Shown here: one piece after another, positions 43,477 through 51,128 of the stretch
How positions within the stretch are numbered: position 1 is the stretch's first letter
Layout of the letters: each line of letters starts with the position of its first letter
Sequence record: KM606994
Strand: one strand, 5' to 3'
DNA from: Escherichia phage RB3
DNA: 64,000 nucleotides
Position numbers and translations under genes: made by a program
The notes under the pieces: model-generated
Databases searched by the model: none
Told to the model about the DNA's origin: nothing
What the model saw: the letters and a program-made list of their open reading frames with translations, nothing else

Positions 43477-43797
43477 TTATAGCGTAATCCATTCTCGTAC
43501 TGTCTGAGTTACTACACGTTCATGGGGCTCGACTAGTTCAACAGTCGGAACTGCATAATACCAGTCAGAATGATAAGAACCTGACCGAGATTCATTTACA
43601 GCCACATGTACATTATGTTTTGGACTAAAGTAAACACACTGACGATATTGACATTTACCATCTTGCACCCAGTCTTCTATTTCGACAGGTTTAAGATAAT
43701 CGGAAAAATCGAAATCATAGTTTTCCGAAAATGCATCATGGTCTTCAATGATTTCGCTCAGAACTGCATCAACATCTAATTTATTTTCAATAGTCAT
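43477..43797 (-). CDS. hypothetical protein (106 aa)
   Basis: ORF track. Confidence 0.4.
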   Translation of the reverse strand: MTIENKLDVDAVLSEIIEDHDAFSENYDFDFSDYLKPVEIEDWVQDGKCQYRQCVYFSPKHNVHVAVNESRSGSYHSDWYYAVPTVELVEPHERVVTQTVREWITL

Positions 43798-43981
43798 TTT
43801 TTCACCAATTAATTTCGCAATTTATTAAGTTCTTCATCATCAATCCAGGATTCTAGTCCTGATGGCAGGGCACATTCAATTTCCCAAAGAAGTTCTTCAA
43901 TTTTCTGAAGACGATCTAGTTCTTCGGCTGGAATAGTAACCATTGACGGAGCTCGTGATACATTAATATCGTAAATCATAT

Positions 43982-44197
43982 TTACCCCAATTTAACCATA
44001 CAATCGCCGTATTTCCACTTAGAAATAGACTTTTCACCATTAGAATAATAAACTTCGAGTTTAGCACGATTATTTTTAATTTGAATAACCTTGGCTGTCA
44101 TCAAAGTTCCATACCCATAATAAACTGCAACTTCATCACCTACATATACCGCGCTTCCGCGGTAATCATGAATATAGTCAGTTCCTTCGAGCATCAT
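43982..44197 (-). CDS. hypothetical protein (71 aa)
   Basis: ORF track. Confidence 0.4.
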   Translation of the reverse strand: MMLEGTDYIHDYRGSAVYVGDEVAVYYGYGTLMTAKVIQIKNNRAKLEVYYSNGEKSISKWKYGDCMVKLG

Positions 44198-44458: not shown

Positions 44459-44842
44459 TTATTCCTTAATTCCTAGTACTTGTTTAAAAGTCTCGTCGTA
44501 ATCAAGACTTTGGCCCGTTTGTTCTTTATGTTTGTATATAATATCACTTACTTCTGATAGCATATTTTTATATGAACGAGTTAAAGCAGATTTAAGCACG
44601 CTGTATCTATCAGGAAATTTACCATGTTCATTATAATAAGCTATTGCTAATTCACGGACTGCCTTTTCAGCAGTCTCCATATATTCTTTACGCTTTGTCA
44701 TTTTCTTCTCGGTCAAATCGGTGTTTACAATGGCGACATTTATAACGAAGATTATTAGTCTGCCAATGGACCAATTGCACCTGTTCAGTTCCACATTCAG
44801 GGCAATTAGGAACGTTTTTAGAAGCACGTTCGCGGCGTTCAA
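44459..44842 (-). CDS. hypothetical protein (start uncertain, likely internal)
   Basis: ORF track; overlaps next ORF in another frame. Confidence 0.35.
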
Positions 44843-45002
44843 CCATGACCATTACAGAATCCCAATTAATAGGGCTGCTGTAATCATCACAACCATGAAT
44901 CTTTCCACGCATTTCTAGATCGTCTTCTTCACCAGCCATAATAATTTTAATTAGACTAGAATTACTTGAAGCTGCAATGTCTTCTAATAGACGCTTTTTC
45001 AT
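44688..45002 (-). CDS. small zinc-finger protein (104 aa)
   Basis: CPECG...CRHCKH motif. Confidence 0.4.
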
Positions 45003-45928
45003 TTCAATACCTCAATAGCATTACGTAAACCATTTGCTTTTGCATTAAGAGCTTTTAACAATTTGGTGTGTTCTGCAATTTGGGCTTCAACTTCAGTCAA
45101 ACGGGCATTGAGATATTCACGTTCTTCACTCAGATTATCAACCTTTTCTACTTTAGGCTCTTTTACAACTGTCTTATATGTATTAGGGTTCTTCAGTTTA
45201 ATTAGAATGCGTGAACTGTATAACATTGAACCATTATCTTCGGTTTCGTCATACATTTCCACTACGTCCATAATTTTTAACATCATGCGGAGTTTATAAG
45301 ACAACGAACGAATAGTTTTGTTGTGCTTATTAATTTCTTTAGCTGTCATGGTGCCAAGATTACGTGAGTAATAATAAGGAACCTGGATATTAATTAATAC
45401 TGATGAACCACCTGGCTTGTGTGTTACTTCATCAGCAATAACCCAGTCCTTAACATGAACTGTATTTGTACGGTCATCGCCTGCAGTAAACAGCTTGCGA
45501 GCATGCTTAAAAAGCATATTCACTTGGTCATTGAATTGACAAGCAAATTTATCAGCAAATTTAGTTTCAGGAATGGTAGATAACCAATCAGCCAAATGGG
45601 TCTTTTTAACATCGTTAACAATAGTAAATTGAACCAAATCGGTTATAGATGTCGCAGATTTAATGAAGCTCGGCTTCATAAAGTTTTTAATGTTATCACG
45701 AGCTACAGTAGAAGATAACATACGAGAACGTTTAAACCATTCAAGCAAATTGCCTAACGAATGAGAATAAGCGTTTTGAGTATCTTTACAGATATGATTT
45801 TCCTGACCAACATATTGAAGGAAATCACGAAGAATATTATTGATTACTGCTCTGTGCCCGATCTGATAATTACGGTGTTTAGTAATAAGACTATCAAAAT
45901 AATCAATATAATGTTTACGAGTTTTCAT
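44999..45928 (-). CDS. uncharacterized protein with C-terminal coiled coil (309 aa), array member 1
   Basis: ORF track; ATG start; heptad-like C-terminus. Confidence 0.5.
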   Translation of the reverse strand: MKTRKHYIDYFDSLITKHRNYQIGHRAVINNILRDFLQYVGQENHICKDTQNAYSHSLGNLLEWFKRSRMLSSTVARDNIKNFMKPSFIKSATSITDLVQFTIVNDVKKTHLADWLSTIPETKFADKFACQFNDQVNMLFKHARKLFTAGDDRTNTVHVKDWVIADEVTHKPGGSSVLINIQVPYYYSRNLGTMTAKEINKHNKTIRSLSYKLRMMLKIMDVVEMYDETEDNGSMLYSSRILIKLKNPNTYKTVVKEPKVEKVDNLSEEREYLNARLTEVEAQIAEHTKLLKALNAKANGLRNAIEVLK

Positions 45929-45980
45929 GTTCTTCTCACTTGGTTAATGATTTATGCTCCGAGCCATCCTTGGCTTTAAA

Positions 45981-46982
45981 TTACTTAATTAACTGTAAAG
46001 CTTGTTCCAAACGATCAAGACGATTAACAGATTCTTCCCAAATCTTTTTAGCCTGCTCATATTCTTTCTGCGCTTTATTAGAAATTTCTAGAACTTCCTT
46101 ATAAGCTTTTTCTAGTGCAATAACTTCTGGACGAATTTCTATCGGTTCAGGTGAATCGTCAAGACATTCCATTAGTTCCTCAAGGGTAGTTTCTTCTTTA
46201 GGAGTATTCACAATTTCATCACATTTTTGTTGGTAAATTTCTTTATCAGTAGGTGAATAAGCACATTTCACTTCACGAAGGCTAATTACGAGTTTATATC
46301 CTTCCCAACCACCCATATTTTTGAAAGGATATGTATGAATACTTTTTACAGTTTCCATACAATCCAAAGCCGTCTCTAATTGACGAGTTATAGTGCTAGC
46401 AATTGAGAAAAATTTATTAATATTCTTTTGGTTAGCTTCTGGTGTAAAAAATTCGTAATTCACAAAAATAGCTACTTTATTTTTATCAAGCTCATATTCT
46501 TTTACGATAATCATATCAGAAGCCAAAGGATGAATTTGACGATAATCGCCATAACATAATTTAGAAGCTGATTTTAGAATTTGTCCTTTAAAAAGTCTGA
46601 AATTACTAATCCAACGACGAGTAAAAATATTCTTAGGGTCTTCTTTGATATTAAGATGATAAGAATTAACATCACCGAACCAATTGTATCCTATTACACC
46701 TTTAGTTCGTTTAATTTCTTTCCCAAAATTACCAAGAATATCCCGATTAACCAAATATGAAAGAAGACGAGACCCTTTAAAGATTATCTTAATATCATCT
46801 TTATCTACACGGCTAGAAATTTCACGAACTTCATGAATAAATTTACTGGAAGAAACAATACTTGCATCAATACTGCTGAGCCATTGATTGATAATAGAAA
46901 GAACAGCGTTCTGACTAGACATGGGTTTAACTTTATCATCAATAACGCTATTGAATGATTTGATATATTCGTTACGAGTCAT
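45981..46982 (-). CDS. uncharacterized protein with C-terminal coiled coil (333 aa from first ATG), array member 2
   Basis: Track ORF trimmed to ATG with GAGGAG RBS, downstream of promoter at 47011-47040. Confidence 0.5.
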   Translation of the reverse strand: MTRNEYIKSFNSVIDDKVKPMSSQNAVLSIINQWLSSIDASIVSSSKFIHEVREISSRVDKDDIKIIFKGSRLLSYLVNRDILGNFGKEIKRTKGVIGYNWFGDVNSYHLNIKEDPKNIFTRRWISNFRLFKGQILKSASKLCYGDYRQIHPLASDMIIVKEYELDKNKVAIFVNYEFFTPEANQKNINKFFSIASTITRQLETALDCMETVKSIHTYPFKNMGGWEGYKLVISLREVKCAYSPTDKEIYQQKCDEIVNTPKEETTLEELMECLDDSPEPIEIRPEVIALEKAYKEVLEISNKAQKEYEQAKKIWEESVNRLDRLEQALQLIK

Positions 46983-47010
46983 AATAATCTCCTCAGTAGA
47001 AAGTAAGAAC

Positions 47011-47040
47011 ATTATACCACATCCTTGTGGTAAAGTAAAC
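47011..47040 (-). promoter_or_regulatory. early promoter, exact duplicate of the 2418-2447 promoter
   Basis: Identical 30-mer attataccacatccttgtggtaaagtaaac. Confidence 0.6.
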
Positions 47041-48062
47041 TAGTTCAGTGCATTTAGTGCATTGCTCAGTTTAGAACGTTGCTTCGTGAGATTTTTGACT
47101 TTTTCTTGTGCTTTTTCTAGCATCTTTTCAGCTTCTAACACTTCATTAGTTGCTTTAACGAGTTCATCATCTACTGCCTTGATAGACTTCTCAATCGCAT
47201 CCGCGTGCCATTTTTCAACAGGTTTAAGACTCGGATTTTCAACAGGAAGAAAATTCACTTTATTGAATTTCCATGCATCTTTATTACCTGAGCTATACAT
47301 CCAAAATTTAGGATCGTTTGATAAGTAATTGGATAAATTTAAGTTATCTTGCACTTCCTGCTTTTTCTCTTGCGGGACTTCGTCCTTTCTCAAAAAATCG
47401 TATTTAAATGAAACGATCATATCAAGTTCATATGTTGTTGTATGTTCCCAATTTCGCTCAAAACGAGGTAAAATCTTAGATTGAACAGCAGCAACAACAT
47501 CCATATACTTAAATGCTTCTGTCAACTGCGATTTAAGGCATTCACAAATTGAAAGAGAATTTTTTGTATTAGGTTTAAAGCTAATTCGCGCAGTTCTATT
47601 ATTTTCTTTTAATGGTCTTACTTCCATCTGAAGAGTATAACCATCAAATTTCAGGTTCTTTAAGTTAATATCAGAGCCTTTTAATCGACTAGCAGTAGAC
47701 AAAATTTGCTTTAATTGTTTACGGAATAGAGCAATAAATCTCCATTCAATACGATAATGATTTGGATTGAAAAATCCAGATGATAAATCGACCTTACTTT
47801 GACCAACGCCTTGAACAATCAAAGGATTTTTATAATCAATAGTTTTACAGAAATCGGTGAGCTGTTCACGAGCAGTCATTTGTGTAATATACCCTGCTTT
47901 ACTAAAATTACGCACCCATTCACTGCTATTCGTATACTTAAAGTGATGAATAACACGATTAACTTTATCAGGGTCTAAATTATTTTCACACAAAAATGTC
48001 ATAACATCACGAGTATAGCTGGCATTACGAACCATATCTTCAATTTGAGAACGAGTTTTCAT
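47040..48062 (-). CDS. uncharacterized protein with C-terminal coiled coil (340 aa), array member 3
   Basis: ORF track; ATG start with AAGGAA RBS. Confidence 0.5.
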   Translation of the reverse strand: MKTRSQIEDMVRNASYTRDVMTFLCENNLDPDKVNRVIHHFKYTNSSEWVRNFSKAGYITQMTAREQLTDFCKTIDYKNPLIVQGVGQSKVDLSSGFFNPNHYRIEWRFIALFRKQLKQILSTASRLKGSDINLKNLKFDGYTLQMEVRPLKENNRTARISFKPNTKNSLSICECLKSQLTEAFKYMDVVAAVQSKILPRFERNWEHTTTYELDMIVSFKYDFLRKDEVPQEKKQEVQDNLNLSNYLSNDPKFWMYSSGNKDAWKFNKVNFLPVENPSLKPVEKWHADAIEKSIKAVDDELVKATNEVLEAEKMLEKAQEKVKNLTKQRSKLSNALNALN

Positions 48063-48070
48063 GGTGTTCC

Positions 48071-48958
48071 TTAAGATTTAAGTAAATCAACAATTTTAAT
48101 TAACTTTTCACGCTCAGATTTAGCTTTACTACTCAGTCCAGATAGTCTGAAAATTTCATCATCATATTGCTGAATAGAAATATTCAGCTCTTCAATCTGC
48201 TTATTAAAATAATCAATTTGTTCAGAATGTTTTTCGTTACTACGAACTGGTACAGGTTTTGTAGGTAATTTAGATGAACTGGATTCATCCGGGCGATAAA
48301 TTAAAATACAACTTGAACCAATTGGACATTTTGCACCAGATGAATATTCTAATGTTCCGGCTTCTTTTAAAACTTCAAAAGCTAAACAGAGATGATGCCC
48401 CATATTAACATAATCAGTAGAGCGAGCTCTGACGTAATAATCATCTCCACGAGTACTAAATTTAAAGCATTTAAGGTCTTCTGTATTATTGGTCTTAAAA
48501 ATCATTTGTTTATCTAGACCTTTAGCTAATCGAGCGCCTAATGCTAATAATCGTCGTTGATTTTCCCACAAATCCGCAATCATTTGATCGAATGATAATT
48601 TCGGCATTAGTCGACCATAAAGGTCATATCCTTTATTATAATTGCGAAGGATTTCACTCGCATTAATACGAGACAACGCTCCAATTTTATTAAGGGCTTT
48701 CATGATGCGATTAGATAAACCCATTCCAGACCCGTTTGTTCGTTGTAAATGTTTATCTAATCCAAACCCAATATCAACTTTAAATTTATCTAAAATTTCA
48801 GCATGAACATCTCTGTCAATAACATTCAAATCCAAAGTTGGGTTAAATCTATGAAAAAATTTATCTGGCTCTCCACGACGAAGTACAGTCCATTCATTCA
48901 ATTTTTTATTAACTAAAGATTTAATTACTGCATTGACATTATTAATTACTACTGACAT
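48071..48958 (-). CDS. uncharacterized protein with C-terminal coiled coil (295 aa from first ATG), array member 4
   Basis: Track start is TTG; first ATG has GAGGA RBS. Confidence 0.5.
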   Translation of the reverse strand: MSVVINNVNAVIKSLVNKKLNEWTVLRRGEPDKFFHRFNPTLDLNVIDRDVHAEILDKFKVDIGFGLDKHLQRTNGSGMGLSNRIMKALNKIGALSRINASEILRNYNKGYDLYGRLMPKLSFDQMIADLWENQRRLLALGARLAKGLDKQMIFKTNNTEDLKCFKFSTRGDDYYVRARSTDYVNMGHHLCLAFEVLKEAGTLEYSSGAKCPIGSSCILIYRPDESSSSKLPTKPVPVRSNEKHSEQIDYFNKQIEELNISIQQYDDEIFRLSGLSSKAKSEREKLIKIVDLLKS

Positions 48959-48965
48959 ATTTTCC

Positions 48966-49373
48966 TCACTCAATTTCAATTTTACTAAATACGCAGAATA
49001 TGATGGAAAAGACTATATAAGCACCGCATACAGATTGAACTAATACCATTCCAAAGAACCAAACAATATTATCAAACAATGTCTGTTTTACGTCGAAAGG
49101 ACGTAAACTTACAATAATATTATCACCTTTTTCTATTGAAGAATACATCTCTGGTGAAATATATTCGCTAAATCTATAACCGTCATTTAGTTCATATACG
49201 GCAATAAACGATAAACTAGACCCCTTTCCTTGAGTTCCTGTAAGGGTATTAACTACAGTAACATCATAATCTTTATAATGCATATAATCATTAATAGCAT
49301 AATAACCATATGCAACTACTACACATAAACAGCATATCAATAAATTCAATCTTTTAATTATCAACTGTTTCAT
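48966..49373 (-). CDS. membrane protein (135 aa, N- and C-terminal TM helices)
   Basis: ORF track; hydrophobic segments at both ends. Confidence 0.45.
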   Translation of the reverse strand: MKQLIIKRLNLLICCLCVVVAYGYYAINDYMHYKDYDVTVVNTLTGTQGKGSSLSFIAVYELNDGYRFSEYISPEMYSSIEKGDNIIVSLRPFDVKQTLFDNIVWFFGMVLVQSVCGAYIVFSIIFCVFSKIEIE

Positions 49374-49428: not shown

Positions 49429-49956
49429 TTATGCGAGTACCGTCTTTAACCGTTCTTCAAACTTCCGAAGAGTATTCTGGCGTTCAGCTCTTTGCTTTTT
49501 ATAAGTTTCAATACGCTCTGAAATGAGAGTGCATCGTTCATTTACTGATTCTTTCATAAAATCAGGAATTTCACGAGAAGCTTTAATCTCATCAAATTTA
49601 TCAATAACAGCTTGCTCTTCAGCAATTAAGTTATCATACATCAAAATATCTTTCTTGATGAACTCAATATCTTCTTGAGTTACACGAGATAACTTAGATG
49701 CTTTATCCTTTTTGTACTGTTCGTTAGTATCACGAGACCAATGTAATGTACGATTTTTATTCGTATTCTTGTAAATTTCTACGATACCAATCTCATCAAT
49801 AATAACGATCCAATTCCAACGGGATTTGTAAATTTGTCCTCCATCAACCGTGATTTCACCACCGATTGAGACATCATTAAAGAACTTGCTTTGAGCTTCA
49901 GATTTAAATTTACCATCGTTGTAATTTACCAGGTTGAAAATATCTTTAGCGTTCAT
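49429..49956 (-). CDS. hypothetical protein with C-terminal coiled coil (175 aa)
   Basis: ORF track; GGAGGA RBS; shared leader cassette upstream. Confidence 0.45.
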   Translation of the reverse strand: MNAKDIFNLVNYNDGKFKSEAQSKFFNDVSIGGEITVDGGQIYKSRWNWIVIIDEIGIVEIYKNTNKNRTLHWSRDTNEQYKKDKASKLSRVTQEDIEFIKKDILMYDNLIAEEQAVIDKFDEIKASREIPDFMKESVNERCTLISERIETYKKQRAERQNTLRKFEERLKTVLA

Positions 49957-50401: not shown

Positions 50402-51128
50402 TTAGGATTCTTCTAAATGTCTTTTCTGAAAAGTTGATACCATACTACGATACGGTTCATTTGGATACCCGTGTTTTATAGCTTCCTTTGTAAATTTTCT
50501 CCATCCATATTTAGTTTTTTTCCAAAGCTCGAATAATTCATCTTCATATTGCCATATAGTTAAATGAGAACGCTTTGCAGCTTTAATTCCATTAATATGC
50601 TTTTCTTTTACTACAGGATTGCTTAGTTTCTTTTTAATAATATTACTAACTTTTCTAACAAAAACTGGGTCCTTATATCGTTGCGAAGTTTTTATTGAAG
50701 TGTTTAATTTAGCTTCCGGCGTGGATGTAACCTCTTTCATCTTTTTCTTCATATGCTGTATATGATTAGGATTTTTCCATAAATTTATAGAATGCTTTTT
50801 GCATTTTATCCTAGTTTCATCTGCAACCTTTCCTCCTTCACCCCCCCCCCCCGTATGACAGGTTAACACAGTTTTTTCCATATTTCAATTTACCTGCCAT
50901 GATATATAATATTTCAGCTTGTACCATTTTATCATAATTATCAAAAACTTCTAAAACCGTTTTTGATAATATGTGGTCATTTGACACTTTTACACGTTCT
51001 ATATAATTTCCACTACCAACATACGAATCATTGATGTTATTAGTTATATGTCGACCATAATAGTATTTCTTAATACCTGTCTTTAAATTTAATATTTCAG
51101 TTTTATAGATAGTAAAATATTTTTTCAT
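50402..51128 (-). pseudogene. GIY-YIG homing endonuclease gene split in two frames at a homopolymer tract
   Basis: ORF 50838-51128 carries the GIY-YIG motif and ends ...SYGGGG; ORF 50402-50881 starts ...TGGGGEGG in another frame; one base fewer in the tract would fuse them into about 240 aa. Confidence 0.6.
50841..50852. repeat. C12 homopolymer (G12 on coding strand)
   Basis: Twelve consecutive C at the frame junction of the split endonuclease gene. Confidence 0.9.

Follow-up and report, generated by a model that had tools for sequence, protein, structure and literature searches.

Four tandem genes of Escherichia phage RB3, nrdC.3 to nrdC.6: diverged relatives with a common coiled-coil tail and candidate members of a counter-defence family

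Background

Four neighbouring genes of Escherichia phage RB3 encode proteins of similar design, which raises the question of whether they are descended from a single ancestor and what the proteins might do. The window, the 64,000-nucleotide stretch of RB3 DNA that was analysed (sequence record KM606994), carries four co-oriented open reading frames (ORFs) of 309, 333, 340 and 295 amino acids (aa) between positions 44999 and 48958. An initial annotation, made from the sequence alone, described them as a tandem array of paralogues generated by duplication, which might bind a common partner through a heptad-rich C-terminus. The ORFs and the peptides quoted from them were all found in place, so that the observation itself was confirmed, while its interpretation was partly supported. 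The annotations of phages RB14 and T4 name the genes nrdC.3, nrdC.4, nrdC.5 and nrdC.6.

The T4 counterpart of one of these genes has been characterised. An evolved T4 clone with deletions was unable to infect strain ECOR17, and infection was regained once the dsr1 gene of ECOR17 had been disrupted (Srikant, Guegler and Laub, eLife 2022; PMC9391042). In the same study, plasmid-expressed T4 nrdC.5 restored infection of MG1655 carrying dsr1. Dsr1 is a SIR2-type defence (a defence-associated sirtuin) that depletes nicotinamide adenine dinucleotide (NAD+) and is countered by T4 nrdC.5 (PMC9391042). A T4 genome-reduction study found that nrdC.1-6 were lost as one block and are deletable (PMC9825161), and work of 2026 identified gp49.2 of phage T6 as an inhibitor of the OLD defence (PMC13096335). 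A literature search returned no mention of nrdC.3 or nrdC.6, found nrdC.4 only in a genome announcement, and gave no mention of the Pfam family names and nothing newer than PMC9391042 on the inhibition of Dsr1 by T4.

The array and its genes

The interval 44900-49100 of the window was 100% identical to the DNA of RB5, RB6, RB9 and RB10 and 97% identical to that of RB14, all of which are T4-like phages of the genus Tequatrovirus. The four genes lie on the minus strand and are transcribed in the order nrdC.6, nrdC.5, nrdC.4, nrdC.3, heading towards nrdC. The genes and their tails are:

48071..48958, minus strand: nrdC.6, 295 aa, first transcribed of the array; ORF and RB14 annotation, phrog_2257 (8.7e-153), precomputed Pfam assignment PF26899
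48074..48226, minus strand: coiled-coil tail of nrdC.6, residues 245-295; helices 245-271 and 277-294 in the AlphaFold2 (AF2) model, with a kink at SGLSS; heptad score
47040..48062, minus strand: nrdC.5, 340 aa; DUF7235 (PF23882), phrog_2351; orthologue of T4 nrdC.5
47043..47189, minus strand: coiled-coil tail of nrdC.5, residues ~292-340; heptad score, a/d seam, motif KNLTKQRSKLSNALNALN
45981..46982, minus strand: nrdC.4, 333 aa; ORF and annotation, phrog_1435 (3.2e-165), Pfam PF26897
45984..46130, minus strand: coiled-coil tail of nrdC.4, residues 285-333; single AF2 helix, heptad scores
44999..45928, minus strand: nrdC.3, 309 aa; phrog_1435 (2e-115), paralogue of nrdC.4, RB14-type allele
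45002..45148, minus strand: coiled-coil tail of nrdC.3, residues ~261-309; heptad scores, between-allele identity

Each of the four proteins was a full-length, high-scoring member of PHROG 1435, 2351 or 2257 and of Pfam PF26897, PF23882 or PF26899. The gene at 47040-48062 was the only one of the array to match PF23882, with 439.5 bits against a cut-off of 30 over residues 1-340. Its product shared 95.0% aa identity with T4 nrdC.5 over 340 aa, and the two genes occupy the same slot between nrdC.6 and nrdC.4.

Coiled-coil tails

The heptad-rich C-termini proposed in the initial annotation were borne out by shuffling, by ranking against other ORFs, by the search for a single register, and by the helices of the AF2 models of nrdC.4 and nrdC.6. 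Heptads were scored by a scheme of our own, distinct from COILS and MARCOIL, which considers hydrophobic a/d residues and polar surface positions and carries penalties for Pro and Gly. With this score, the C-terminal 40-58 residues of each array protein outperformed at least 199 of 200 shuffles of the same protein. When the 69 non-overlapping window ORFs of at least 100 aa were ranked by the best 28-residue heptad window in their last 45 residues, nrdC.5 was first, nrdC.3 third, nrdC.4 fourth and nrdC.6 seventh. The high rank of the tails indicates that they are particular to this cluster and do not simply reflect the composition of phage proteins.

Each tail can be read in a single, uninterrupted register of about seven heptads, with 12-15 of the 16 a/d positions hydrophobic (LIVMF plus A/Y; 15 of 16 in nrdC.5), and the heptad phase relative to the C-terminus is equal in all four proteins, allowing for the additional last residue of nrdC.6. 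A continuous 3-4 hydrophobic periodicity over at least four heptads within a predicted helix, which was taken as the mark of a coiled coil, was present. The AF2 model of nrdC.4 (predicted local distance difference test score, pLDDT, 85.6) has a single tail helix at residues 285-332, with block pLDDT values of ~71-86, and that of nrdC.6 (pLDDT 77.3) has two, at 245-271 and 277-294. In both models the tail is preceded by a linker of low confidence.

The tails also resemble one another. The last 18 residues align without gaps from the C-terminus, as illustrated by the motifs SKAKSEREKLIKIVDLLK in nrdC.6 and KNLTKQRSKLSNALNALN in nrdC.5. The sum-of-pairs score of this segment was 94, whereas none of 1,000 controls taken from elsewhere inside the same tails scored above 88 and none of 1,000 shuffled tails above 71. 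In each of the three family alignments column entropy is lowest in the tail and, in nrdC.4, many tail columns are nearly invariant.

The nrdC.4 tail contains the segment R321-L322-D-R-L325-E326 (within 45984-46022, minus strand, which codes for residues 321-333), in which R, L, L and E fall at heptad positions g, a, d and e. Across the nrdC.4 family these four residues hardly vary, and the other three tails lack the motif. The segment is presumably an instance of the R-h-x-x-h-E motif, which is reportedly a trimerisation motif of short coiled coils (Kammerer et al. 2005).

The second-best heptad score among the 69 ORFs belonged to nrdC.8 (175 aa; 49429-49956, minus strand), which lies two genes upstream of the array and ends in ...RKFEERLKTVLA. 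It was considered as a truncated family member and rejected, with HHalign probabilities below 1% against nrdC.3-6; this small protein, encoded in the same operon-like block, stands apart from the family despite the likeness of its tail.

Relationship of the four proteins

Duplication as the origin of the array was borne out for nrdC.3, nrdC.4 and nrdC.5, heads included, while nrdC.6 could be joined to them by fold only. Pairwise BLASTP among the four proteins detected just nrdC.3 and nrdC.4, which were 24% identical over 226 aa. The same two proteins are grouped in PHROGs (phrog_1435), where nrdC.5 and nrdC.6 form separate families, and Pfam likewise has three families. Profile-profile comparison, for which all figures are HHalign probabilities, gave 98.1% (E 1.4e-13) for nrdC.3 against nrdC.4. 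A shallow nrdC.5 profile reached only 57% against nrdC.4 and 78% against the merged nrdC.3/4 profile, because its alignment held only near-identical sequences. When fetched loci were scanned, divergent homologues of nrdC.5 (268-307 aa) turned up at the equivalent position in Dhaka-, Mosig- and Gaprivervirus-type genomes, and the profile enriched with these sequences matched nrdC.3/4 at 96.1% (E 3.2e-9) over 251 colinear columns. Profile alignment, a check that the initial annotation had proposed, still gave 93.9% (E 1.5e-7) over 175 columns for nrdC.3/4 against nrdC.5 after the tails were removed. It is therefore the heads that are homologous in these three proteins, and the similarity does not arise spuriously from the coiled coils. 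In addition, a metagenomic relative (P0232) bridges the families, with a body similar to nrdC.4 (E 3.7e-5) and a tail similar to nrdC.5 (E 4.8e-7). We conclude that nrdC.3, nrdC.4 and nrdC.5 are very probably paralogues.

The evidence on nrdC.6 came mainly from predicted structure. In Foldseek searches, the nrdC.4 model retrieved an annotated nrdC.6 (phage JS10) from BFVD with an E value of 2.3e-4 and a probability of 1.0, and the nrdC.6 and nrdC.4 models recovered the same uncharacterised proteins of 300-370 aa from IME523, PM2, fHyAci03, Acj61, fHe-Yen9-01, CBH8 and Mineola. The HHalign alignment of nrdC.6 with the other proteins was colinear from end to end, pairing FKGSRLLSYLVNRDILGNFGK with LNKIGALSRINASEILRNYNKG, ILKSASKLCYGD with LLALGARLAKGLD, and the C-terminal motifs with each other. 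On the basis of these models, nrdC.6 likely belongs to the same superfamily.

The superfamily has further members in Moonvirus, in Acinetobacter phages and in other genera. Distant members were observed just upstream of nrdC in Acinetobacter phage AB-Navy71 (locus L025, 7913-8920) and Citrobacter phage Merlin (locus L024, 6267-7271). Both retain the tail ending (…ARKVSALEETIKILSK and …RRQKLASAVEALNE, respectively), and the head of the Merlin protein (Merlin91) scored 62% against the merged nrdC.3/4/5 profile. No family member was evident near nrdC in the locus of Krischvirus GEC-3S.

Architecture of the heads

The initial annotation placed a globular region of ~250 aa ahead of the tail. The tail stood, and the globular part proved to be a two-subdomain head of ~220-240 aa, an N-terminal helical subdomain followed by an alpha/beta subdomain, and then a flexible linker of 20-45 aa. 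The AF2 models of nrdC.4 and nrdC.6 share the order N-terminal helices, helix pair, beta-hairpin, helix, beta-hairpin, disordered linker and long helix.

As had been noted from the sequence, no enzymatic motif was apparent. Searches of Pfam, NCBIfam and PADLOC gave no credible functional family for the array proteins, and there was no sequence relative in the PDB; the fold tells very little about function. A resemblance to the tail-terminator (gpU-like) or nitroreductase-like alpha/beta fold is tentative, the superposition on solved members being of uncertain significance. Three matches were discarded. The N-terminal SAM-like domain of tyrosine recombinases (PF02899) was a sub-threshold match to nrdC.3 only (E 0.072 in Pfam and 0.0015 in NCBIfam), occurring in one of 34 family members, and was regarded as noise. 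A PHL-domain match (E 6.7e-4, below the cut-off) was also present in only one of the 34 and was disregarded. The only PADLOC match, to BrxC, fell in the nrdC.4 tail (E 0.0044, 13 bits) and was judged to be a coiled-coil artefact.

An exhaustive HMMER search of 1.84 billion proteins with the nrdC.3/4 profile returned only 10 representatives and found no bridge to other families. At the level of sequence, the nrdC.3/4 family is very small and occurs exclusively in T4-like phages. The fold family, as seen by Foldseek, extends over the Straboviridae.

Variation among phages

Comparison of copy number across T-even phages, also proposed at the outset, showed that the number is not constant. The order nrdC.6, nrdC.5, nrdC.4, nrdC.3 is kept in Tequatrovirus loci, which have four copies, while nrdC.3 is missing from loci of the Dhaka, Mosig and Gaprivervirus types, which have three; nrdC.4 is absent from two viral contigs. 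In the phage collection, 652 records were found for nrdC.3, 552 for nrdC.4, 583 for nrdC.5 and 740 for nrdC.6.

Broken and rearranged forms were frequent. nrdC.4 is split into two ORFs in two loci (L003 and L014), T2 was matched in three pieces, and fragments from G8 and T2 are among the BFVD entries. In ACG-C40 (L027:4305-4716) only nrdC.6 is left, together with an out-of-frame remnant in which the start of nrdC.5 is joined to the nrdC.3 tail. In Pinarejo (L028:4447-4641), all that is left is an out-of-frame deletion remnant made up of the first 20 codons of nrdC.6 and its last 47. Salmonella phage Manna, by contrast, encodes an in-frame chimera (Manna_094; L029:3715-4752) in which the head of nrdC.6 meets the linker and tail of nrdC.4 at a 'DEI' microhomology, and in a second protein (P0120) nrdC.5 is fused to nrdC.3 at '(K/Q)VN'. 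The nrdC.6 protein of Shigella phage Sf25 (P0121, 378 aa) has an internal tandem duplication of ~83 residues that runs from the end of the alpha/beta domain through the linker into the first part of the tail.

The nrdC.3 gene exists as deeply diverged alleles. The synonymous divergence (dS) of the window gene from that of T4 was 1.07, as compared to 0.06-0.17 for the other genes compared. Between alleles, identity was 40-57% in the alpha/beta core and linker, 87-90% in the first 60 residues and 73-100% in the tail. The phage collection contained 356 records at 90% identity or more, 211 at 60-80% and 81 below 60%. A mosaic breakpoint lies at the nrdC.2/nrdC.3 boundary (window 44688-45928, minus strand): nrdC.2 is 97% identical to that of T4 and 80% to that of RB14 (dS 0.85), whereas nrdC.3 shows the reverse, being 96% identical to that of RB14 and only 61% to that of T4.

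Discussion

The explanation that we favour, with some reserve, is that nrdC.3-nrdC.6 are diverged tandem paralogues of one Straboviridae design and form a counter-defence family with an oligomerising tail. In this design, a head of two subdomains (an N-terminal helical bundle and a small alpha/beta domain) is connected through a flexible linker to a C-terminal coiled coil, which is conserved and comprises about seven heptads. Each head may recognise a different host immune protein, or a variant of one, and block its activation, presumably by direct binding, while the tail would oligomerise the inhibitor and so provide avidity towards oligomeric defence proteins. The array genes are dispensable accessory genes amid proven counter-defence genes. 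They are lineage-restricted, arranged in tandem, combine a variable head with a constant tail and are often lost or recombined, all of which fits accessory genes that determine host range. Taken together with the phenotype of nrdC.5, these properties make a counter-defence family the most likely interpretation, in which the corresponding roles of nrdC.3, nrdC.4 and nrdC.6 would be expected from their relationship to nrdC.5.

Several observations weigh against this interpretation. A phenotype has been reported for nrdC.5 only (PMC9391042), and the effect on Dsr1 could be indirect, since the published evidence consists of complementation. All four genes are under purifying selection, with ratios of non-synonymous to synonymous divergence (dN/dS) of 0.07-0.29 relative to T4, which gives no sign of positive selection across whole genes. 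An analysis of charges at the e and g positions was uninformative as to homo- versus heterotypic pairing of the tails. Lastly, comparisons of nrdC.6 with the other proteins, merged profiles included, gave HHalign probabilities of at most 16%, or 23% when AF2-derived secondary structure was included, and the Foldseek template modelling (TM) scores were low (0.2-0.5 overall and 0.35-0.5 in the comparison bearing on the nrdC.6 head), which is attributable to the multidomain architecture. For these two reasons the common ancestry of nrdC.6 is probable and not proven.

These same two results would be expected if nrdC.6 were not a true paralogue, its architecture having arisen by convergence or only its tail having been gained from a neighbour by recombination, so that the array would comprise three homologues and an unrelated gene. 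Tail-exchanging recombination does occur at the locus, as Manna_094 demonstrates. Nevertheless, the Foldseek probability was 1.0 in both directions, the overlapping match lists were restricted to proteins of similar length from T4-like phages, the FKGSRLLSYLVNRDILGNFGK / LNKIGALSRINASEILRNYNKG and SASKLCYGD / LGARLAKGLD blocks occur in equal order, and the secondary structure elements of nrdC.6 follow the order of those in nrdC.4. An unrelated origin is considered unlikely. The common partner suggested in the initial annotation corresponds to the main alternative for the tail, that it does not self-associate and instead serves as an adaptor that docks all of the paralogues on one host hub or phage protein, for example nrdC.7, with the heads contributing differing activities. 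In every family conservation is highest in the tail, and in nrdC.6 the non-core residues D266, D267, E268 and R271 are invariant as well. The motif and register of the last 18 residues are common to all four paralogues, the natural chimeras Manna_094 and P0120 keep the tail intact, and the distant members in Merlin and the Acinetobacter phage have the same ending. The simplest reading of a canonical 3-4 hydrophobic seam of about seven heptads, however, is a self-associating coiled coil, and conservation of surface residues within a family can equally reflect oligomerisation specificity; the conservation of non-core tail residues fits docking and oligomerisation equally well. We regard an adaptor of this type as improbable on balance.

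The proteins might alternatively be early proteins of host takeover or regulation, acting for example on nucleic acids or nucleotide metabolism, and not dedicated immune inhibitors; the rescue from Dsr1 would then be an indirect consequence of, for example, masking or removal of the phage-derived trigger or of NAD+ buffering. This seems quite unlikely, in that no enzymatic or nucleic-acid-binding family was detected, the nrdC.1-6 block can be deleted without a laboratory phenotype, and the frequent loss, fusion and replacement of the genes in natural isolates is typical of host-range accessory genes and not of core takeover functions. The tails have length, heptad phase and a C-terminal motif in common, and a further idea, which we consider very doubtful, is that they co-assemble into a hetero-oligomeric coiled coil to give a multi-headed particle with three or four different inhibitor heads. 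If so, whether an array has three or four copies would depend on how many chains make up the bundle, and a head swap or allele replacement would re-arm the complex. In a variant of this idea, the tail may be a conserved address tag that docks every head on one host hub.

The counter-defence interpretation invites comparison with known systems. T4 NrdC.5 (DUF7235) is the closest, the window nrdC.5 being its orthologue, nrdC.3 and nrdC.4 its demonstrable homologues and nrdC.6 a protein that probably shares its fold. The activity was shown for the T4 protein only, against ECOR17 Dsr1 only and by complementation only, and the heads of the paralogues are at most 13-25% identical, so that a common target should not be presumed. 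DSAD1, the inhibitor of DSR2 (Garb et al. 2022; PMC10973363, PMC10981675, PMC11087589), is a functional analogue of nrdC.5: a phage protein lacking enzymatic motifs that switches off a SIR2-domain NADase by direct binding. It differs in coming from Bacillus phages and in having DSR2 as its target, and the likeness is one of function, with nothing to suggest homology to the nrdC proteins, although neither sequence nor fold was compared with theirs. The counter-defence clusters of T-even phages, namely the dmd-tifA-adfA 'anti-TA' (anti-toxin-antitoxin) island, gp49.2 (anti-OLD) and ipI-ipIII, have in common with the array that they are dispensable early genes of hyperplastic regions, subject to microhomology-mediated deletion, that determine host range and occur only in T4-like phages. 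Their inhibitors are small, unrelated and single-copy, whereas the array consists of three to four large tandem paralogues (~300-340 aa) with a shared coiled-coil tail. PHROG and Pfam list three separate families of unassigned function, which profile and fold comparisons join here into one superfamily.

Since the genes were already annotated and one is functionally characterised, the array is not a new kind of system. The new element, a modest one, is the superfamily link, with the head-linker-tail design and the natural chimeras. Because nrdC.5 disarms a bacterial immune protein, nrdC.3, nrdC.4 and nrdC.6 are good candidates for a like role, and the link extends this candidacy from these orphans to their relatives in phages of Klebsiella, Acinetobacter, Serratia, Yersinia and other hosts. 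The chimeras and allele classes constitute ready-made variants. Knowledge of which accessory genes widen the host range is of practical value, as T4-like phages are widely used therapeutically.

Neighbouring genes and sites

A scan for promoter consensus sequences gave no enrichment over shuffled controls, and only one site was plausibly placed:

47011..47039, minus strand: promoter-like site TTTACT-17-TATAAT with TG, in the gap between nrdC.5 and nrdC.4; 10 of 12 consensus matches

This putative site is a lead only. By its position it speaks for the 333-aa start of nrdC.4 and against a longer ORF of 343 aa.

An orthologue of gp49.2 lies at 43477-43797 (minus strand), 1.2 kb from the array, and together with pin, which encodes a Lon inhibitor, and nrdC.5 it delineates a counter-defence neighbourhood at 42.8-49 kb. 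The gene for nrdC.7, a small membrane protein, is adjacent to the array. At 43809-44197 (minus strand), where T4 has gene 49.3, there are two small ORFs (56 and 71 aa) that resemble RB32ORF081c/082c. Small ORFs in the corresponding nrdC-pin interval of ACG-C40 and Pinarejo are annotated as 'antitoxin from a toxin-antitoxin system'. A seg-like gene for a GIY-YIG homing endonuclease occupies 50402-51128 (minus strand). In the window it is split into overlapping ORFs of 96 and 159 aa by a 7-nucleotide insertion within a run of ~12 G near 50852, which may be either a genuine frameshift that created a pseudogene or a homopolymer sequencing artefact; the gene is intact in RB14, where it encodes 240 aa.

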